This document shows, piece by piece, positions 29,980 through 43,224 of a stretch of 43,224 bases of DNA. Source of the DNA: a virus; UHGV virus genome UHGV-0208947; one strand, 5' to 3'. Within the stretch, counting starts at the first letter, position 1; every line of letters starts with the position of its first letter. The position numbers were made by a program, and so were the translations under genes. Below the pieces are notes generated by a model. It did not search any database, was not told the DNA's origin, and saw nothing but the letters and a program-made list of their open reading frames with translations.

Positions 29980-31140
29980 ATGACGCAGGGCTTACCTGTA
30001 TCCAACGTTGTAAACGTTGATGTGATCATCTCGCCGAAAGCGGCTACTGGTCGTAACTTCGGCGCATTGCTAATCCTTGGCTCTTCCACTGTCATTCCGG
30101 TGACAGAACGTACTCGCCTATATGCTTCCATTGAGGACATTGGCGAAGACTTCGGTGTCGACAGCCCGGAATATAAAGCAGCGCAGGTTTTCTTCAGCCA
30201 GTCACCGAAGCCGACACAGGTTTATGTTGGTCGCTGGGCGAAGACGCTGAGTTCTTCCGAGAGTGGAGATACTGAAACTATCGTGCAAGCCGTTAATGCC
30301 TGCCTGCAATATACCAACTGGTATGGGCTGGTTGTCGCTGATGATGTTGTCGCTGGTGGCGATGTGCTTGATGCTGATGACGTGATTGAGGTCGCCAAAC
30401 TTATTGAAGCGTCCAGCCTTAGCCGTATCTTTGGTGTGACCTCTGCCGACGCCGAGATTATCAGCACGACTTCGACGACCGATGTTGCGTCGAAATTAAA
30501 GGCTGGCAAGTATGCCCGTACCTTTATTCAGTATTCCACCAGCAGCCCTTACGCAGCGGTTTCTGCTTTCGGTCGTGCGTTTACTGTCAATTTCAACGGC
30601 AGCAATACCACCATTACCCTGAAGTTCAAACAGGAACCAAGCGTAACCTACGAAACGTTGACGGTAGGCCAGGCGGCTGCGGTGGATACGAAGAATGCGA
30701 ACGTGTTCGTGTACTACGCCAACGACACGGCGATCCTGCAACAGGGTGTCATGGCGAACGGTGACTTCTTCGACGAGCGCCACGGGCTCGACTGGTTGCA
30801 GAACTACGTTCAGACCAACCTCTATAACCTGCTTTACACCAGCACCACCAAAATTCCGCAGACTGATGCCGGTGTTACCCGTCTGCTTTCCAACGTTGAA
30901 CAGTCCATGGATCAGTCCGTCACGAACGGTCTGGTAGCTGCTGGCGTGTGGAATGGTGGCCCTATCGGACAGCTGAATTCCGGCGATACGCTGACCAAAG
31001 GCTATTACGTGTATGCGCAACCGCTGTCCGAACAGGCGCAGGCCGACCGCGAAGCGCGCAAAGCACCGTTAATCCAGGTGGCCTGTAAGCTGGCTGGCGC
31101 AGTTCATTATGCCGATGTGCAGATCAACGTGGTTCGCTAA
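29980..31140 (+). CDS. Contractile tail sheath protein (Mu gpL-like)
   Basis: 386-aa ORF followed by a tube-sized gene, a chaperone and the tape measure gene; canonical myovirus order. Confidence 0.65.
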
Positions 31141-31150
31141 GGAGCGATAA

Positions 31151-31591
31151 ATGGCAACTTATTCTTTTCTCGATGTAACCGCGTCGCTCACCGGGCCGAC
31201 CGGCGTTATCGATCTTGGTCAGGGTTCTGCGAACTCTGAGGAAGGTATCACCCAGACCATGGGCGGCAACAAAAACACCATGACCATCGGTGCCGATGGC
31301 GAGGTGATGCACAGCCTGCACGCCGATAAGTCAGGCACCATTACGGTGACGCTACTCAAAACCTCCCCGGTGAATAAAAAGCTGTCTCTGGCGTATAACG
31401 CGCAAAGCCAGTCCTCTGCCACCTGGGGCAATAACGTGATCGTCATTCGCAACACGGCATCGGGTGATATTTCTACTGCGCGTTCGTGTGCATTCCAGAA
31501 ACAGCCTGATTTCAATAACGCTAAAGAGGGCGGAACCGTCGCCTGGGTATTCGACTGCGGCAAGATTGACCAGCTTCTCGGGGAGTTTTAA
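31151..31591 (+). CDS. Tail tube protein
   Basis: 146-aa ORF between sheath and chaperone genes. Confidence 0.6.
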   Translation: MATYSFLDVTASLTGPTGVIDLGQGSANSEEGITQTMGGNKNTMTIGADGEVMHSLHADKSGTITVTLLKTSPVNKKLSLAYNAQSQSSATWGNNVIVIRNTASGDISTARSCAFQKQPDFNNAKEGGTVAWVFDCGKIDQLLGEF

Positions 31592-31594
31592 CGC

Positions 31595-32020
31595 ATGGAA
31601 TTCGAAATTAAAGGCGTGAAATATCGCACCGCAAAGCTCAGCGTTTTCGAACAGCTGAAGGTGTCCCGCAAGCTGTTGCCGGTTCTGGCCGGGATGGTTT
31701 CGGACTTCCGGAGCGTTCAGGAGAAGATCAGCAGCAAAGACACCGAAGGCGCGATGGCTACCATCCTGCCAAAGATTGCCAATGCTGTGTCCGATCTGAG
31801 TGATGGCGACGTGGACGCTATCCTGTTCCCCTGTCTTTCCGTTGTTTCACGCGAGCACATGAAAGGCTGGGTGCCGGTCTGCCAGCATGGCGAAATGGCG
31901 TTTGACGATATCGACCTGCTTACCATGCTGCAACTGGTGGCGCGGGTGGTCGCCGACTCGCTGGGAAATTTTTTGCAAGGACTCCCTACCAGCGAGACGC
32001 CCACCCCGCTAGCGGAATAA
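31595..32020 (+). CDS. Tail assembly chaperone; a -1 frameshift extension (to 32209) is predicted
   Basis: 141-aa ORF just upstream of the tape measure gene; slippery heptamer A-AAT-TTT at 31966-31972 with a start-less -1 frame open from 31960 to a stop at 32207-32209. Confidence 0.55.
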   Translation: MEFEIKGVKYRTAKLSVFEQLKVSRKLLPVLAGMVSDFRSVQEKISSKDTEGAMATILPKIANAVSDLSDGDVDAILFPCLSVVSREHMKGWVPVCQHGEMAFDDIDLLTMLQLVARVVADSLGNFLQGLPTSETPTPLAE

Positions 32021-32197
32021 CCTTCAACAGCCTGCCGGGCGGTGAAGATTTTATTCTTCGCCCGGCGCTTGCCTTCCATATTGACCAGAAAGACCTTAAC
32101 AGCGGTGCGGTAGACCTTTGCCGCATCGCGCTTCTCAATGACTACCTCGACATGCGCGAGGATAACGACGCCCGGGTAGATAAATGGAGAGCGGCCA

Positions 32198-34279
32198 ATG
32201 AGCGGTAACGCAGATACGATTAAAGATTTCCTTGTTTCGCTGGGATTCGATATCGATCAGGCTGGCGCTAATAAGTTTGAAGCAGTGCTGAAAGGCGTTA
32301 CCGCGAACGTTCTGAAGGTCGGCGCGGTGGTGGAAGGAGCAGCGCTGAGCATTGTCGGATTTACCACCCAGATCGCGAATGGTCTGGATAAAATTTACTG
32401 GGCATCCCAGCGGACGGGGGCCAGCGTCCAGGGCATCAAAGCGCTGGGCTATGCCGCATCGCAAACTGGCGCCAGCGCTGAGTCGGCCATGTCCTCCCTC
32501 GAAGGGTTGGCTGGCTTCATGCGTAGCAATCCGGGGGCGGAAGGGTTCCTGAACCGTCTTGGTGTCCAGACCCGCGATGCCAGCGGAAAGATGCGTGATA
32601 CTGCTGCCATCTTTACTGGCGTTGGGCAAAAGCTCAACAACATGCCGTATTACCGCGCGAAGCAATACGCGCAGATGCTCGGCATCGATGAAAACACGCT
32701 GATGGCGATGCGGCGCGGCATGAATGGCTTTACCGCCGATTACCAGTCTATGCTGCAAAAGACGGGGTTCAACGCTGATAAGGCAGCCGTTCAGTCCAAC
32801 AAATTCATGACGTCCATGCGCGGGCTTACGTCGCTGTTTGGCATTATGCGGGACAAGATCGGCTCAAATCTCGCTGGTGGCTTGGCTGGTTCGCTGGACA
32901 GCCTGCGGCGGCGCATCCTCGACAACTTCCCGAAGATTGAAGAGACTCTGACCAAAGTTATTAAGGGCGTGATCTGGCTTGCAAACGCCTTCACACGAAT
33001 GGCGTGGCGGCTTATACAGGGCGCTGGCTCTGTCATTGACTGGTGGAAGCGTCTTGATGATGGCAGTAAAAATCTGCTGAAAATATTCGGTGCTCTACTG
33101 GTCGCATGGCGTCTGCTTAATTCTGCGTTCCTGAAATCCCCGATTGGAATTATCACCACACTGATTCTGGCGATCGGATTGCTGTACGACGATTACCAGA
33201 CGTGGAAAGAGGGCGGTAAAAGCCTGATTGACTGGTCCAAATGGCAGCCAGAAATTGAGCAAGCAAAGAAGGTGTTCAAGTGGCTGCGCGATAAGTTTCT
33301 GGAGCTCAAGGACAACCTCGGCGGCTGGAAAAATACGCTCACCATCCTGTTTGGCTTTCTGGCTGGTGCGAAGCTGGTCTCCATGCTCACTGGCATCGGG
33401 CGACTTGTCGCCGGATTTATGGGGCTTGGTAAGGCAATTGGCGGCTCTATTGGTGGGCTGGGTAAGCTGGCGCAGGGGATCGCACAGCTGGCAATCAAGA
33501 ATCCATGGTTGCTTATGTTCATTCCTGCCAACAATACGCCGACCACCAGTGAAGAAATGGCGTCGATTGGCGGTATAGGCAGCAATATCGTACCTGAAAG
33601 GCAGCAGGCATATGAGGCGCTGAGAAAGGAAAATCCCGGCAAAGACTTTTTCACTGATGAGCAAATCCAGCGAAAAATTCAGGAGATGGGACTGGAGCCG
33701 GAGCTGCGAGCGCAGTCGGTTAAGCGACCTCAGGCGACGGCCCAGGGCAAGGTATTGCTCGACTGGATGGGGCCAATGTTCAATAAACTGGAGTCGCTTT
33801 ATCAGCTGCCAGCTGGCCTGTTGAAAAGCGTGGCGATCACCGAGTCGGGTGGTAACCAGTTCGCCATATCCGGCGCAGGCGCGAAAGGACTGTTTCAGTT
33901 TATGGATGGCACGGCGCGCGACATGGGCCTGCGTGGGAATGATGTATTCGACCCGGAAAAGTCAGCTCAGGCAGCCGCTAAGTACCTCAGCCAGCTGTTG
34001 CGGCAGAACGGCGGAGACCTTAGCAAAGCACTGGCATCATATAACTGGGGGATCGGGAATGTTAAGCGTTATGGAATGGGGCTAATGCCGCAGGAAACGC
34101 GCAACTACATTCCGAAAGTAATGAGCAATATGCCCACCAGCGCCCCGGTGATTCAGCAGGAAACGAATATTAACATCCACGGCGTTTTCGATCCGCGCGA
34201 GGCTGCCCGTTTGACTGTTGACCGTCAAAAGGGCGTGAATTCACAGTTAACCCAGCAACTCCCCGCAGGACCGAGATAA
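32198..34279 (+). CDS. Tail tape measure protein with C-terminal lytic transglycosylase (SLT) domain
   Basis: 693 aa, long helical central region; C-terminal ...SVAITESGGNQFAISGAGAKGLFQFMDGTARDMG...ASYNWGIGNV matches the SLT catalytic region (ES motif). Confidence 0.75.
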   Translation: MSGNADTIKDFLVSLGFDIDQAGANKFEAVLKGVTANVLKVGAVVEGAALSIVGFTTQIANGLDKIYWASQRTGASVQGIKALGYAASQTGASAESAMSSLEGLAGFMRSNPGAEGFLNRLGVQTRDASGKMRDTAAIFTGVGQKLNNMPYYRAKQYAQMLGIDENTLMAMRRGMNGFTADYQSMLQKTGFNADKAAVQSNKFMTSMRGLTSLFGIMRDKIGSNLAGGLAGSLDSLRRRILDNFPKIEETLTKVIKGVIWLANAFTRMAWRLIQGAGSVIDWWKRLDDGSKNLLKIFGALLVAWRLLNSAFLKSPIGIITTLILAIGLLYDDYQTWKEGGKSLIDWSKWQPEIEQAKKVFKWLRDKFLELKDNLGGWKNTLTILFGFLAGAKLVSMLTGIGRLVAGFMGLGKAIGGSIGGLGKLAQGIAQLAIKNPWLLMFIPANNTPTTSEEMASIGGIGSNIVPERQQAYEALRKENPGKDFFTDEQIQRKIQEMGLEPELRAQSVKRPQATAQGKVLLDWMGPMFNKLESLYQLPAGLLKSVAITESGGNQFAISGAGAKGLFQFMDGTARDMGLRGNDVFDPEKSAQAAAKYLSQLLRQNGGDLSKALASYNWGIGNVKRYGMGLMPQETRNYIPKVMSNMPTSAPVIQQETNINIHGVFDPREAARLTVDRQKGVNSQLTQQLPAGPR

Positions 34280-34881
34280 TGGATATTTTATCAGCGATTT
34301 TTCGCCAGCAATCCCGGCGAATTGGAATATTAATCCCCAGCGTGGTTGTTTCTGAAAAGCATTCTGATGCGCTAGAAATTACTGAGCACCCGGTGGAGAA
34401 GCCAACAACGAATAGCGCGTCGGGTTTCATCGCCGATCATGCGTATAAGCGCCCCAGCGAAGTCACGATGGAATGCGGCTTCGCAGGTGGCGGTTCGTTG
34501 CTGGACTTCATTGATACATCGTCAATCGGCCTCAGCGCCGGACTTAGCCCGAAAGAGACCTATCAGCAACTACTGGATCTCCAGTCCTCTCGGGTGCCGT
34601 TCGATGTAGTGACCGGAAAGCGGGTTTACAGCAATATGCTGGTGCGAGCCATCGAGGTGACAACGGATAAAACCAGCGAGAACGTGCTGAACTGCACGCT
34701 TACCCTGCGTGAAGTGATCATGTCGCAGACGCAGAGCGTTAGCGTTGCAGATAAATCAGATATGCAGGATGGCGTCAGCACATCGGCGGTGCAGAATTCC
34801 GGGATGAAATCCACTACACCGCCAAACGAATCCTTGCTGAGCCAGCTGGGCGGAAGCGTTACATCAGCATTCGGGGGATGA
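34279..34881 (+). CDS. Tail/baseplate protein
   Basis: 200-aa ORF coupled (ATGG overlap) to the tape measure gene. Confidence 0.45.
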   Translation: MDILSAIFRQQSRRIGILIPSVVVSEKHSDALEITEHPVEKPTTNSASGFIADHAYKRPSEVTMECGFAGGGSLLDFIDTSSIGLSAGLSPKETYQQLLDLQSSRVPFDVVTGKRVYSNMLVRAIEVTTDKTSENVLNCTLTLREVIMSQTQSVSVADKSDMQDGVSTSAVQNSGMKSTTPPNESLLSQLGGSVTSAFGG

Positions 34882-36267: not shown

Positions 36268-36612
36268 GTGAGACATTTACTTTGCACTGTTACCGTGTTC
36301 GCGGTGCTTATATCAGCACCCGCTTTTGCGGATCAGCAATGTGGTGATTTTAAAATCCATTGGGCAGATGATGGCTTAGCCAGAATCAATGGCGCAAAGC
36401 CAGAAATGCAAAAAATCACCTTCCTGAAAAACAAAGGCGATTATAACAATATCAAGATGGATTGGCGTATGGCTACCGATCAGCCTGGAAGATGGGTTGG
36501 TCTTGAGTACATCAATCGAAACGGCAAGATAATTCTCAATGCCCAGTGGCTGCAAGCCAGCATGAATGCGCCGCGTCAGTATGCAACCTATGATTGTATA
36601 AAGGTGAAATGA
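36268..36612 (+). CDS. Small secreted protein (signal peptide, two Cys), moron of unknown function
   Basis: MRHLLCTVTVFAVLISAPAFA-DQQC... signal peptide; AT-rich; inserted between baseplate genes. Confidence 0.55.
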   Translation: MRHLLCTVTVFAVLISAPAFADQQCGDFKIHWADDGLARINGAKPEMQKITFLKNKGDYNNIKMDWRMATDQPGRWVGLEYINRNGKIILNAQWLQASMNAPRQYATYDCIKVK

Positions 36613-37158
36613 GTGGCAGGTAAGGGACTGTCAACTATTGGCCCTTTGGATCTGGCATCTCTAAATGATGATAACTTTGTAATCACCATTGTTTTTCCTC
36701 ATTCGACGGCAAAAAATTATCCAATGGCTGTAGCCATTGCTGAGCTTTCAGATGTAAATAAAATTGGTGAGATAGCAGGGAAAAAATTCCATTTAGCGTC
36801 CTTTAGTAAAACGCCTGATCAACTATCAAGAGCTGCAAACCTATGTTATCTGGTGTATGGAATTACTGGCGTTCAAGCCTTTATTAACGGTGAGTTGGTT
36901 GTAAATGTTCAGGAGTTATCATCTTCTCTTGGATGTTATGCTCGATCACTAAAAGCCAACAATCAGCAGTCTTATTGCGAATGCGTTTCTAACTACCCGG
37001 GCAACTACCTTTTACCTTGCCGTTTACTTAGGGGGTGGGAAGGCGGAGTGTCCGATAAATTGCCATTTAGTTTGGCTGACCAAATACAAGCATTGGCAGT
37101 AAGTAAAGGGTGTAGTTGGTGTCCCAATTTCCACCCAGAAAAGATGAAGCGAATTTAA
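36613..37158 (+). CDS. Cys-rich hypothetical protein (second gene of the moron cassette)
   Basis: GTG start abutting the upstream stop; 181 aa with CxC...C...CxxC; followed by a strong terminator. Confidence 0.45.
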   Translation: MAGKGLSTIGPLDLASLNDDNFVITIVFPHSTAKNYPMAVAIAELSDVNKIGEIAGKKFHLASFSKTPDQLSRAANLCYLVYGITGVQAFINGELVVNVQELSSSLGCYARSLKANNQQSYCECVSNYPGNYLLPCRLLRGWEGGVSDKLPFSLADQIQALAVSKGCSWCPNFHPEKMKRI

Positions 37159-40402: not shown

Positions 40403-41130
40403 TGGCTGGAACTAATGATTTTAAAGCGTTTGCGACAGATGCTAATGCAAATGTTACCTCGCAGGAGGAATGGGAGACGCTAACCGCACTGAAGAAAGGA
40501 TTCTCCTCGGGTAAAGCATCCAGCGCACAGGTCAGTAAAGCGCTGCGCCAACCGTCGACGATGGCGGCTGTACTGGGGCAGTTTATCGCGAACGCCGAAC
40601 TGGACGCGCTCGATGATGGTGACGTTGATGGACTGGTGGCAAAGCTGGCGACAGCGATTACCACAAACCTTGGTTTGGGAGAAGGCTCTGCATTACCTGT
40701 TGGTGTCCCTGTTCCGTGGCCTTCAGCCACTCCGCCAACAGGCTGGCTGAAATGCAATGGTGCAGCTTTTTCTGCTGAAGAATACCCGGAACTGGCAAAG
40801 GCTTATCCGACAAATAAATTGCCTGATTTACGTGGTGAGTTTATTCGTGGCTGGGATGACGGTCGTTCAGTAGATACTGGTCGCAGCGTTATGTCTGCAC
40901 AGAGAGCGCGTGTTGGTTATATTAAATTTGATATGGGAATTTATGGTATTCCTGCAGGTACGGGCTCACTTATTTTGTCCAATGATATCTTAATTACGGG
41001 TCATGACAGTAATGGCTCAAGCCTATTACTGAACAACTCTAATGAGCGGGCAATTGGTGAAATGTATGTCGTTCCTGCCGATACTCGCCCACAAAATATT
41101 GCATTTAACTATATCGTGAGGGCCGCATAA
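40402..41130 (+). CDS. Tail fibre protein (constant N-terminus plus currently expressed variable C-terminus with tail-collar-like motif)
   Basis: ...GWLKCNGAAFSAEEYPELAKAY...LPDLRGEFIRG resembles the phage tail collar/fibre domain; the hix-like crossover site lies within the gene at 40658-40683. Confidence 0.75.
   Translation: MAGTNDFKAFATDANANVTSQEEWETLTALKKGFSSGKASSAQVSKALRQPSTMAAVLGQFIANAELDALDDGDVDGLVAKLATAITTNLGLGEGSALPVGVPVPWPSATPPTGWLKCNGAAFSAEEYPELAKAYPTNKLPDLRGEFIRGWDDGRSVDTGRSVMSAQRARVGYIKFDMGIYGIPAGTGSLILSNDILITGHDSNGSSLLLNNSNERAIGEMYVVPADTRPQNIAFNYIVRAA
40658..40683. promoter_or_regulatory. Left inversion crossover site (hix/gix-like 26 bp) inside the tail fibre gene
   Basis: TTACCACAAACCTTGGTTTGGGAGAA; its reverse complement shares the first 14 bp (TTCTCCCAAACCAA) with the site at 42591-42616. 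Confidence 0.6.
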
Positions 41131-41732
41131 TGAATAATGCAGAATTAAATAGTGAATTGATTGCTACTGCGGCAGGGAATATTACTGTTTATAACTATGA
41201 TGGTGAGACGCGAGAGTATACTACTACATCAACTGAATATCTTGCTGTGGGTGTCGGTATCCCGGCAAGTTCCTGTTTAGATACTCCTGGCTCATATAAA
41301 GCTGGTTATGCAATCTGCCGTTCTGCAGATTTTAACTCATGGGAATATGTGCCAGACCATCGCGGTGAAATCGTCTTTAGCACCGAAACAGGAGAATCAA
41401 AAGAAATCACAGCTCCGGGTGATTACCCTAATAATACAACCACTATCGCCCCATTAACGCCATACGATAAATGGGATGGTGAGAAATGGGTGACGGATAC
41501 TGAGGCACAGCATAGCGCCGCAGTAGACGCGGCAGAAGCACAGCGTCAGTCACTGATTGATGCTGCAATGGCTTCCATCAGTCTGATTCAGCTGAAATTA
41601 CAGGCCGGACGGAAGTTGATGCAGGCAGAAACAACCCGGCTTAACGCTGTGCTGGATTACATTGACGCGGTGACGGCAACAAATACCAGCACCGCGCCGG
41701 ATGTCATCTGGCCTGAACTGCCGGAGGAGTAG
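41130..41732 (+). CDS. Tail fibre assembly protein (chaperone)
   Basis: 200 aa; C-terminal ...TNTSTAPDVIWPELPEE typical of Tfa proteins; coupled to the tail fibre gene. Confidence 0.7.
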   Translation: MNNAELNSELIATAAGNITVYNYDGETREYTTTSTEYLAVGVGIPASSCLDTPGSYKAGYAICRSADFNSWEYVPDHRGEIVFSTETGESKEITAPGDYPNNTTTIAPLTPYDKWDGEKWVTDTEAQHSAAVDAAEAQRQSLIDAAMASISLIQLKLQAGRKLMQAETTRLNAVLDYIDAVTATNTSTAPDVIWPELPEE

Positions 41733-42147
41733 GCCATTCAATATCTGGCGCACCGGAAGTATCGACCAGTTCCAGTGCGTCCAGATAATCCAGCCACGAA
41801 TTATATTGCGCCAGTTCCTCGCCTTTCAGACGACCAATAGCAGCTTTGCCAGGCCACTGATGGGTATTGATGTAGGTATTGACTTCTGAAACCAAAGATA
41901 TTTTTTTCATTTCAGCCGTCAACACCTCATCCTCTTTTGAAGGGGGTGGGGAATTAATCCATACTGGCCGTCCTGAACTATCAGCGCCAATTTCTTTCCC
42001 TTCTGGATGCAGACCAAGAAATTGCTCATATGTTTCTCTGGTAATTTCAATAACATCATCAGGAAGCGTTCCCGCATCCTCATATTCTGGAAACAATTCT
42101 TGCAGATAAAAACTTTTACTTCCGGGTGAAAAGAATACTGAGTTCAT
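41704..42147 (-). CDS. Alternative tail fibre assembly protein (inverted orientation)
   Basis: 147 aa; C-terminal ...DTSGAPDIEWPTPPAVQAR parallels the plus-strand Tfa; convergent overlap. Confidence 0.7.
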   Translation of the reverse strand: MNSVFFSPGSKSFYLQELFPEYEDAGTLPDDVIEITRETYEQFLGLHPEGKEIGADSSGRPVWINSPPPSKEDEVLTAEMKKISLVSEVNTYINTHQWPGKAAIGRLKGEELAQYNSWLDYLDALELVDTSGAPDIEWPTPPAVQAR

Positions 42148-42149
42148 TA

Positions 42150-42623
42150 TTACCGTCCAATGATTAACGCTGAGACGCTGGTATCTGAAGGAAAGTCTGC
42201 ATTCAGTGGTTTGTCGACTTTGAATACAATCGTATTATTCCCCCGGACAGCGGCAAAAGAACAAACCGCCGTCGCGTATGAACCTGTAATATTACTGAAT
42301 ACACCACCATAGGCTGTTGTTGATACCAGAGGGATAACGCCCAGCACCTTATTAGGAAATACAAAGGGCAATGTGGCTGTGGCAATATAAGACTTATTAG
42401 AACCTGTAATGGCATAAGCATTATCAGTCATTCCATTCATCGCCACTGGACCGCTTATACTTACAGTAACCATCTGAGTGATTAGCCCGTCAGGTTGACG
42501 AATCACAAAATTTCCATTGCCACCAGTAACCGTCCAGAAAGACATATCAGGGATTTGGTTTTCCCCGTTGCCCACATTCCTTTTTGCCGCTTCTCCCAAA
42601 CCAACCTTTTTTATAACCATCAA
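42150..42623 (-). CDS. Alternative tail fibre variable C-terminal cassette (silent in this orientation)
   Basis: N-terminal ...KKVGLGEAAKRN... reads through the right hix-like site and shares the GLGE junction with the constant part of the plus-strand fibre (..TTNLGLGEGS..). Confidence 0.65.
   Translation of the reverse strand: MMVIKKVGLGEAAKRNVGNGENQIPDMSFWTVTGGNGNFVIRQPDGLITQMVTVSISGPVAMNGMTDNAYAITGSNKSYIATATLPFVFPNKVLGVIPLVSTTAYGGVFSNITGSYATAVCSFAAVRGNNTIVFKVDKPLNADFPSDTSVSALIIGR
42591..42616. promoter_or_regulatory. Right inversion crossover site (hix/gix-like 26 bp)
   Basis: TTCTCCCAAACCAACCTTTTTTATAA; compare hixL TTCTTGAAAACCAAGGTTTTTGATAA as recalled. Confidence 0.6.
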
Positions 42624-42675
42624 AAATCTGGTGATGCTTCGCCGTTTCTCCTGTTTTCATAACAGGAGAAATCCC

Positions 42676-43224
42676 ATGATTTACGGTTATGCCCGAGTAT
42701 CAACAAACCACCAGGACACTGAATTGCAACTAACGGCGCTCAAGTCAGCGGGTTGTGAGAAAATTTTTGAAGAGCATGCCAGCGGGAGGAAATCGAATCG
42801 GCCGGTTCTAAAACGGCTGATCGCCACTATGCAGCCGGGGGATGAACTGGTGGTCTGGAAGCTGGACAGGATAGGCCGCAACGTTCTGCATGCGCTGTTG
42901 ATGTTCCAGCAGTTACAGGAAAAGGGTATCAACTTCCGCAGTATTACCGATGGCGTGGATCTCAAAACAGCCAGCGGCCGCTATAACTTTCGTAACATCC
43001 TTTCCGCAGCACAATATGAATCTGATCTTAATAGCGAACGTACCTTAGCAGGGCTGGCCGTAGCCAGGGCAAAAGGGCGAGTTGGTGGTCGCAGGCCTAA
43101 GTTCACGGATGAGCAATGGTGGGAAATGGGGGAGCGGATGGCAACCGGTGAATCACGACAAAGCGTATCAAAAACATATGGAGTAGGGCTCTCAACTCTG
43201 TATAAAAAGTTTCCAGCTAGCTGA
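42676..43224 (+). CDS. Serine DNA invertase (Gin/Hin/Pin/Cin family)
   Basis: ATG at 42676 after AGGAGA; MIYGYARVSTNHQDTELQ... with catalytic Ser in YARVST, VVWKLDRIGRN, C-terminal HTH ...GLSTLYKKFPAS; ends with TGA at the last window base. Confidence 0.85.
   Translation: MIYGYARVSTNHQDTELQLTALKSAGCEKIFEEHASGRKSNRPVLKRLIATMQPGDELVVWKLDRIGRNVLHALLMFQQLQEKGINFRSITDGVDLKTASGRYNFRNILSAAQYESDLNSERTLAGLAVARAKGRVGGRRPKFTDEQWWEMGERMATGESRQSVSKTYGVGLSTLYKKFPAS

Follow-up and report, generated by a model that had tools for sequence, protein, structure and literature searches.

The window analysed here, the whole 43,224-nucleotide stretch of virus genome UHGV-0208947, carries a tail module whose features all lie on the plus strand. 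A tail sheath gene (29980..31140; Pfam DUF3383, 4.6e-102) precedes a tail tube gene (31151..31591; Pfam KPP10_Orf10 (DUF3277), 5.8e-60), which lies directly 5' of a tail assembly chaperone of 141 amino acids, the 'G' equivalent, read in the zero frame (31595..32020). Between the chaperone and the tape measure gene (32198..34279), which encodes a C-terminal lytic transglycosylase domain (Pfam SLT, 2.9e-25; PhageMin_Tail matches weakly), there is a 178-nucleotide gap spanned by the -1 frame alone. The DUF3383 sheath family bears the label E217_gp31_N on a related contig, and the tube family (PF11681) is also labelled Phage_Tube_PhiTE. The sheath, tube and baseplate genes define the tail type as contractile, and the chaperone locus is part of a contractile-tail prophage. 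The position of the chaperone between tube and tape measure supports the assignment to a tail module made in the initial annotation. No promoter or plus-strand terminator was found in the interval between chaperone and tape measure.

The chaperone matches Phage_TAC_15 (PF21822) well above the gathering threshold (114.8 bits versus 22; profile positions 1-121 of 127; 4.9e-33) and PHROGs family phrog_1688, 'tail assembly chaperone' (4e-57), while a PDB sequence search with the chaperone profile returned nothing significant and NCBIfam holds no model for either the chaperone or the -1 part. The open reading frame (ORF) ends at 32020, as first reported, with the stop codon TAA at 32018-32020. The limits of the -1 frame overlapping its 3' end require correction: this frame is open from 31906 (the preceding stop is at 31903-31905) rather than from 31960, and it continues to 32205, with its TAA at 32206-32208 rather than a stop at 32207-32209. 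The accompanying statement that it contains no start codon is accurate upstream of 32152, where neither ATG, GTG nor TTG occurs, but not throughout, as there is one ATG at 32152. That codon stands 18 codons before the -1 stop, within a conserved domain match described below, and the frame lacks a usable start. The predicted extension proper, the 'T' equivalent (31972..32208), consists of 78 codons and the TAA; 16 of them overlap the 3' end of G and the other 62 follow the G stop, giving a predicted fusion of 204 amino acids. The end of the -1 ORF shares 11 nucleotides with the start of the tape measure gene, an overlap that recurs at the same length in all 11 overlapping relatives for which these two boundaries were tabulated. 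A +1 frameshift was considered and rejected, the +1 frame being shut 8 codons past the chaperone stop.

Within the region where both frames are open lies the slippery run GGGAAATTTTTTG (31963..31975). It holds three nested in-frame heptamers, G_GGA_AAU (31963), A_AAU_UUU (31966) and U_UUU_UUG (31969). The A_AAT_TTT heptamer originally proposed as the slippery site is indeed present at 31966-31972 in the zero-frame register (codons AAT at 31967-31969 and TTT at 31970-31972), but it is one of three candidates and not the only one. A slip at G_GGA_AAU or A_AAU_UUU would produce the predicted junction peptide VVADSLGNFFAR, and a slip at U_UUU_UUG would produce VVADSLGNFLAR. In Escherichia coli, slippery tetramers follow the hierarchy A_AAG > U_UUY, and heptamers of the form H_HH.U_UU.Y, A_AAU_UUU included, rank with the most efficient (PMC4066793). 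The ORFs of the window contain in-frame heptamers at a rate of 0.34% per codon, and the chance of encountering one in the 37-codon overlap is P ~0.12, so that a heptamer taken alone is weak evidence. The 13-mer GGGAAATTTTTTG itself is found once in the window against 0.09 occurrences expected, with one mismatch allowed. The decisive evidence for the predicted frameshift is comparative.

Related loci were searched with an alignment of six chaperone sequences, yielding a comparison set of 69 distinct phage and prophage loci. Two single-ORF matches (P0001 and P0110) that contain both Pfam domains were left out, as their assemblies appear full of errors, with scrambled segments. A separate tblastn search with the predicted fusion gave 37 phage records that match in two pieces over at least 80% of the query. 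The T_TTT core is present at the homologous site in 68 of the 69 loci and a canonical heptamer in 66. In 67, a -1 extension 55-76 codons long runs up to the start of the tape measure gene; the conservation of the overlapping frame in related phages, whose absence the initial annotation named among the results that would count against its proposal, is thus borne out. The taxa concerned range from Enterobacterales to Burkholderia and Acinetobacter. Among Enterobacterales, T_TTT_TTG/T (60/69) is better conserved than A_AAT_TTT (55/69), and of the three nested heptamers U_UUU_UUG shows the strongest conservation. Codon choice at the site is equally constrained. The Phe codon is TTT in all 65 sequences compared, versus approximately 40% TTT at other conserved Phe columns, and this column, with zero codon diversity, is unique among 49 conserved columns; Gly124 is encoded by GGA in 49 of 64 sequences, a codon rare at other conserved Gly columns. 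Three relatives have only U_UUU in place of a canonical heptamer (GAT TTT ATG in ZHS, TCT TTT ATC in E192a and GGG CCT TTT in L067-69), and IFTN9 retains G_GGA_AAU alone.

The sequence past the chaperone stop evolves in the manner of a protein, and this is seen in the -1 frame only. Across 46 ungapped loci, pN/pS in this stretch is 0.48 in the -1 frame versus 1.15 and 1.37 for the remaining frames, and nucleotide diversity by -1 codon position is 0.26/0.22/0.53, position 3 being twice as diverse as positions 1 and 2. The extension is conserved at the protein level in 20 phages, with the motif LPxGED..L.RP...DG..DL.DIALMND kept from Enterobacterales to Acinetobacter and Burkholderia. Amino acids are conserved from the slip site onwards (GKFFxRTPYQRDA ... 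LPxGED), which precedes every annotated start. Fusion residues 165-200 (32086..32193), encoded in the -1 frame only, match DUF6889 (PF21829; 1e-10, 41.6 bits versus a cutoff of 23.9), and the extension also matches PHROGs family phrog_4364 (2.3e-17). Phage_TAC_15 and DUF6889 were the only Pfam families found on the fusion at E <= 0.01.

These observations bear directly on the readings that compete with a -1 programmed ribosomal frameshift. It is scarcely credible that the -1 frame is open, and the heptamer present, by coincidence and that 32021-32197 is a non-coding spacer: the probability given above for a single in-frame heptamer would allow it, but -1 open runs of at least 100 codons make up just 0.26% of such runs inside genes (median run, 9 codons), and the codon-position periodicity, the low pN/pS, the Pfam domain match and the retention of the arrangement in nearly all loci speak against it. 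That the downstream piece is instead a separate small gene with its own start is hardly more plausible, despite the precedent in existing records. Automatic annotation calls a 27-amino acid 'DUF6889 family protein' in RefSeq and, in phage records, products of 50-58 amino acids named 'hypothetical protein' or 'NTP pyrophosphohydrolase', and phrog_4364 holds such ORFs. Against this, the sole ATG, GTG or TTG of the frame is the ATG inside DUF6889, RefSeq resorts to ATC as the start codon, and conservation precedes all annotated starts; among the 69 loci, the position of the first possible start is not conserved, falling anywhere from 15 to 60 codons past the slip site, and in two there is none.

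Transcriptional slippage is an alternative that we also judge very unlikely. An extra U added in the T6 run (31969-31974) would yield a U7 mRNA coding for a G-T fusion in a single frame, and the product obtained by inserting one base into the run is identical. Homopolymeric U7/A7 runs are known to be prone to slippage (PMC4066793). A public contig with T7 for T6 encodes a 213-amino acid in-frame fusion with the junction LGNFFAYTP; this contig, in which the fusion is encoded exactly as predicted without a change of frame, was also counted for the frameshift reading. Polymerases usually require some 8-9 T's to slip efficiently, however, more than the T6 present here, and distant homologues with T4 only (CCT TTT ATC, AAT TTT ATT) possess the same -1 extension. 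Moreover, the zero-frame X_XXY_YYZ register and the choice of GGA and AAT codons fit tRNA re-pairing rather than slippage by the polymerase.

A search for RNA structure downstream of the heptamer, suggested in the initial annotation, found no conserved one. RNAalifold returned 0 pairs across the 69 sequences, per-locus folding of the relatives gave a mean z of -0.4, and shuffled versions of a downstream hairpin (32029-32069) scored higher than the hairpin itself. In the window itself, a 201-nucleotide fold (z = -4.2) predicts a long stem, 31934-31964 / 31989-32015 (the whole element occupying 31934..32015), whose loop contains the slippery run. Over the 69 loci, 65.5% of cells pair at this stem versus 63.9% in shuffles, a marginal difference from a test biased by the derivation of the structure from the window, and neither of the two candidate stems of the window has covariation support. 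The flanking stem is clade-specific and its role doubtful. One could imagine that in the window's clade this 25-bp long-range stem around the triple-nested run acts, by flanking the ribosome instead of lying ahead of it, to tune how often frameshifting occurs in that lineage; this model is improbable in our estimation, but if it were true the stem would set a G:GT ratio unlike that of stem-less relatives. An upstream GGGTGG sequence (31944-31949) was rejected as a Shine-Dalgarno-like stimulator, being a poor anti-SD match that, by eye, is not retained in Photorhabdus and other relatives. As no conserved stimulatory RNA element was found upstream or downstream, the frameshift efficiency is not predictable.

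True homologues of the locus occur in Klebsiella phage Mulock (CPT_Mulock_014/015, MN098327) and Burkholderia phage Magia (CPT_Magia_015/016, MT701587), whose fusions are 56% and 37% identical, respectively, to that predicted here and whose gene order is the same. In both records the joined coding sequences (CDSs) were deposited as 'tape measure chaperone' 'frameshift product', annotations that are computational; the published description of the Mulock genome contains nothing on a frameshift. The slip position is common to all three, at GGGAAATTTTTTG in Mulock and at C_CCU_UUU in Magia, and the -1 extensions of the two phages proceed 62-63 codons past the chaperone stop and end at the tape measure start. 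Unlike Mulock and Magia, the window's own lineage (prophages of E. coli, Citrobacter and Enterobacter, and phage Omnitron) has been annotated without the frameshift.

Because the tail is contractile, the closest verified parallel is E/E+E' of phage P2 and not G/GT of lambda. P2 is an E. coli phage with a contractile tail, its chaperone is encoded between the tube (FII) and tape measure (T) genes, as here, and its -1 extension overlaps the start of the tape measure gene, as in the window. The P2 frameshift is reportedly one that Christie et al. demonstrated experimentally in 2002. The P2 site, as marked in RefSeq NC_001895, lies directly after GGT TTT TTG, where the heptamer U_UUU_UUG on T6G is identical to that of the window, although P2 has this single heptamer versus the three nested here. 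The products also differ in size, P2 E having 91 amino acids and its fusion 142, versus 141 and 204 in the window. Sequence similarity to P2 gpE was not detectable (BLASTP E = 31) and no P2-type Pfam family was found at E <= 0.01; the likeness to E/E+E' is one of mechanism and heptamer only. With lambda the locus shares the G/GT logic of two products from one start, the longer one arising from infrequent -1 slips close to where G ends, just 5' of the tape measure gene. Of the two lambda parts, G binds the tape measure protein and T the tube protein, and neither product is found in virions (PMC5009743, which summarises Levin 1993 and Xu, Hendrix and Duda 2004, 2013, 2014). The window's G_GGA_AAU resembles G_GGA_AAG of lambda, but the conserved core is U_UUU here and A_AAG there, and the lambda tail is non-contractile.

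With the criteria of Xu, Hendrix and Duda (2004) for G/GT-type systems applied, the arrangement originally proposed is supported by its position, the -1 overlap, an in-register heptamer, conservation and coding selection in the shifted frame. Given the gene order, reading frames, site conservation and -1 coding constraint observed here, it is very probable that this contractile-tail prophage expresses its chaperone pair via a -1 programmed ribosomal frameshift. For the fusion protein, its abundance and its binding partners, we infer the following scheme. Most ribosomes would decode 31595-32020 and release the 141-residue chaperone, while a minority would slip back one base on GGGAAATTTTTTG (31963-31975) and translate the -1 frame as far as its TAA at 32206-32208, thus appending the 78-residue C-terminal 'T' domain (DUF6889) to the chaperone body. 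The family-wide element is the UUU Phe codon after U (31969-31972); its flanks in the window offer both A_AAU_UUU and U_UUU_UUG, whose products would differ at residue 127 alone (F or L). On the model of lambda G/GT and P2 E/E+E', the N-terminal part common to both products may coat the tape measure protein and the T domain may bring in the tube protein, starting tube polymerisation, with the frequency of slipping setting a fixed low ratio of the two products.

A -1 frameshift in the tail chaperone is a well-known device of long-tailed phages, and the locus described here is real but ordinary; it adds nothing new on the mechanism of frameshifting, and its value lies mostly in annotation. The correct gene model comprises the 141-amino acid chaperone and a predicted frameshift product of 204 amino acids, within a tail module that is confirmed. 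The 27-amino acid RefSeq CDS with the ATC start, annotated in a 100%-identical E. coli prophage (locus L077, 1231-1314) and mapped to 32125..32208 of the window, is probably an artefact of the unannotated frameshift. E. coli strain WEM25 (NZ_CP061530) is one carrier of a prophage with 100% identity. More generally, stand-alone proteins recorded as DUF6889, as phrog_4364 of 'unknown function' or as 'NTP pyrophosphohydrolase' most likely represent the T domain of a G/GT-type fusion. Re-annotation along these lines would drop a spurious small-protein family and assign DUF6889 a role.

The tail assembly chaperone gene (31595-32020, plus strand, 141 amino acids (aa), TAA stop at 32018-32020) shares its reading frame (position mod 3 = 2) with the next large gene, that of the tape measure protein at 32198-34279. 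No ORF of the chaperone frame extends across the 178 nt that separate them, nor does any normally initiated ORF of another frame, and a search of the interval for a promoter and a plus-strand terminator found neither. The gap is spanned by the -1 frame, which is open from 31906 (previous stop at 31903-31905) to a TAA at 32206-32208, while the +1 frame ends eight codons past the chaperone stop. The initial annotation had proposed a programmed frameshift into the -1 frame; the frame is indeed open across the chaperone end, but it opens 54 nt before the 31960 proposed, its stop lies one nucleotide upstream of the 32207-32209 assigned to it and, not strictly devoid of start codons, it holds a sole ATG/GTG/TTG, an ATG at 32152, 18 codons before its end.

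Within the overlap, at 31963-31975 on the plus strand, lies the slippery run GGGAAATTTTTTG, whose zero-frame codons are (CT)G GGA AAT TTT TTG. It holds three overlapping X_XXY_YYZ heptamers in zero-frame register: G_GGA_AAU at 31963, A_AAU_UUU at 31966, which was correctly located by the initial annotation, and U_UUU_UUG at 31969. Slippage at either of the first two would yield a product containing ...SLGNFFARTPYQ... and slippage at the third ...SLGNFLARTPYQ...; the predicted fusion is 204 aa long whichever is used. In the 48 putative genes of the window, 0.34% of codons carry a heptamer in frame, and a single heptamer in the 37-codon overlap is without significance on its own, because its chance probability is approximately 0.12. 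Open -1 runs of at least 100 codons make up only 0.26% of the runs inside genes (median 9 codons), the slip-site 13-mer occurs once in the window (0.09 expected), and the chaperone is the only gene of the window in which a heptamer leads to a long -1 extension other than the next gene itself. Close to the 3' end of the tape measure gene (34228-34279), an in-frame A_AAG_GGC opens into a 200-codon -1 frame, but it was rejected as a candidate: the frame is that of the next gene (34279-34881, Dit-like), whose own ATG overlaps the tape measure stop.

Using the predicted fusion as a tblastn query, we recovered 40 phage records, 37 of which matched at least 80% of the query in two pieces, corresponding to two frames. 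From 19 phage loci and 56 prophage loci of distinct bacterial species, 69 distinct sequences were obtained. The overlapping frame proves to be conserved among them, as the initial annotation implied: at the homologous position 68 have a T followed by a TTT Phe codon, at least one canonical heptamer is present there in 66, and a -1 extension of 55-76 codons past the chaperone stop is found in 67. In the window the two genes share 11 nt where the -1 ORF runs into the tape measure start, and the overlap is of this length in all 11 overlapping relatives for which the -1 ORF end and the tape measure start were tabulated. The exceptions are mostly degraded copies, such as those of Arsenophonus and Apirhabdus (L059, L061 and L071). 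The extension is truncated to 23 codons in an Enterobacter sp. R1 prophage (L036) and runs for 242 codons in an Izhakiella australiensis prophage (L054), where the stop has apparently been lost and the frame fused into that of the tape measure; these two and the degraded copies are probably decaying prophages.

Codon usage at the slip site is also constrained. The Phe codon (31970-31972) is invariably TTT (65 of 65 sequences), against 41% TTT in the two other conserved Phe columns, and this column alone among 49 conserved ones lacks any codon diversity; the Gly before it is encoded by GGA in 49 of 64, although that codon is the rarest for Gly in the other conserved Gly columns. Beyond the chaperone stop, nucleotide diversity in the 46 distinct loci aligning without gaps is 0.26, 0.22 and 0.53 at -1-frame codon positions 1, 2 and 3, and pN/pS is 0.48 in the -1 frame, the other frames giving 1.15 and 1.37. 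The -1 translation can be aligned from Enterobacterales to phages of Bordetella, Ralstonia, Burkholderia and Acinetobacter (common motif LPxGED(W/F)(L/I)xRP...DGxxDLxDIALMNDxLDVxADN), its conservation begins immediately past the slip site, and the conserved stretch scores above threshold for Pfam DUF6889.

By position, the 69 sequences include 48 with G_GGA_AAU, 55 with N_NNU_UUU and 60 with U_UUU_NNN. Enterobacterales retain the T6 run (T_TTT_TTG or T_TTT_TTT) even where AAT is replaced by GGT, AGT or GAT, changes that abolish A_AAU_UUU. Distant relatives have only a T4 run, with N_NNU_UUU as their canonical heptamer (C_CCU_UUU, A_AAU_UUU or G_GGU_UUU), so the shared element is U_UUU. Phage IFTN9 keeps G_GGA_AAU as its sole heptamer. 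In E. coli measurements U_UUY is the second-best tetramer, behind A_AAG, and H_HH.U_UU.Y heptamers, including A_AAU_UUU, are among the most efficient (PMC4066793). In P2, RefSeq places the E/E+E' frameshift right after GGT TTT TTG, which holds the same heptamer, U_UUU_UUG, as the window. Given the conservation pattern, these measurements and the P2 site, A_AAU_UUU, the slip site originally favoured, is a good candidate but one of several, and not the best-conserved within this host range.

That the -1 ORF arose by chance is excluded by its coding signal. Independent initiation of the downstream ORF is how RefSeq and several phage records annotate it: in an E. coli prophage 100% identical at this locus, the counterpart of 32125-32208 (NZ_CP061530 1809752-1809835; 1231-1314 of that locus, L077) is entered as a 27-aa 'DUF6889 family protein' that starts at ATC. 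This is contradicted by the lack of a conserved start codon, by a conserved protein that begins upstream of all annotated starts, and by the sole canonical start of the window, which truncates the domain. Transcriptional slippage on T6 would give the same protein as a frameshift, and a public contig (L076, Logan SRR23924998_45326, 1895-1910) in which T7 replaces T6 codes for precisely this fusion as a single frame (P0004, 213 aa, junction LGNFFAYTP); the contig carries either a genuine 'GT-only' mutation or an assembly error in the homopolymer. We nevertheless consider such slippage very improbable, since the run is only T4 in distant homologues and the heptamers stay in register, both of which favour tRNA re-pairing.

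The window itself folds into a strong 25-bp long-range stem (31934-31964 with 31989-32015; 201-nt fold z = -4.2) with the slippery run in its loop. Outside the clade of the window the stem is not strong, and the family-wide comparison speaks against a conserved role: covariation gives no support, and pairing barely exceeds that of shuffles (65.5% vs 63.9%, for a structure derived from the window itself). The search for RNA structure, proposed as a check by the initial annotation, yielded none that is conserved: RNAalifold found no consensus structure in the 69 sequences, folding z-scores per locus averaged -0.4, and a second hairpin at 32029-32069 was unsupported; no conserved Shine-Dalgarno-like element was found upstream. 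The lambda G/GT frameshift likewise is not known to need a defined structure, and a missing structure is thus no argument against frameshifting.

The chaperone matches Pfam Phage_TAC_15 (4.9e-33) and the PHROG 'tail assembly chaperone' (4e-57). Its neighbours are the sheath (29980-31140, DUF3383), tube (31151-31591, KPP10_Orf10/DUF3277) and tape measure (SLT domain) genes, a Dit-like protein and the baseplate hub, followed by genes for the spike, baseplate J, DUF2612, a tail fibre and fibre assembly. Together they make up the tail module, which the initial annotation had also recognised, and the phage is a temperate one with a contractile tail. Citrobacter phage Omnitron is 97.7% identical to 31151-32400, and prophages in several E. 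coli chromosomes are 100% identical to 31595-32208. Between the hub and spike genes, two ORFs without a Pfam match (36268-37158; 114 aa with a signal-peptide-like N-terminus and 181 aa, Cys-rich) coincide with a GC dip (0.46 vs about 0.54) and look like a moron-type insertion. At 40658-43224, 27-nt inverted repeats (40658-40684 and 42590-42616) bracket two opposed tail-fibre assembly genes (41130-41732, plus; 41704-42147, minus) and an alternative fibre C-terminus (42150-42623, minus), adjoined by a serine invertase (42517-43224, Resolvase and HTH_7), an arrangement resembling the Mu G-segment/Gin invertible host-range switch.

At the level of sequence, the arrangement has all the defining features of conserved G/GT-type frameshifting in tail chaperones (Xu, Hendrix and Duda 2004; PMC5009743), the type initially assigned, and its homologues in phages Mulock and Magia already stand in the databases as joined CDSs labelled 'frameshift product'; the predicted frameshift is therefore an unannotated addition to a known type. 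There is no sequence similarity to P2 gpE or to lambda-type families, and the likeness to P2 and lambda is limited to mechanism and gene position; frameshifting of the P2 type exceeds that of lambda 2- to 3-fold in efficiency (review PMC5009743). By analogy with lambda, the G part (the chaperone) would bind the tape measure and the T domain (the -1 extension) would recruit the tube protein. The -1-frame piece also makes up the PHROG family phrog_4364 ('unknown function'), and Klebsiella and Hafnia phage records carry it as 50-58-aa 'NTP pyrophosphohydrolase' or 'hypothetical protein' CDSs; these and the RefSeq CDS look like by-products of an unannotated frameshift. The one mildly useful consequence concerns DUF6889, phrog_4364 and the 27-aa RefSeq proteins, all of which most likely represent the T domain of the fusion.
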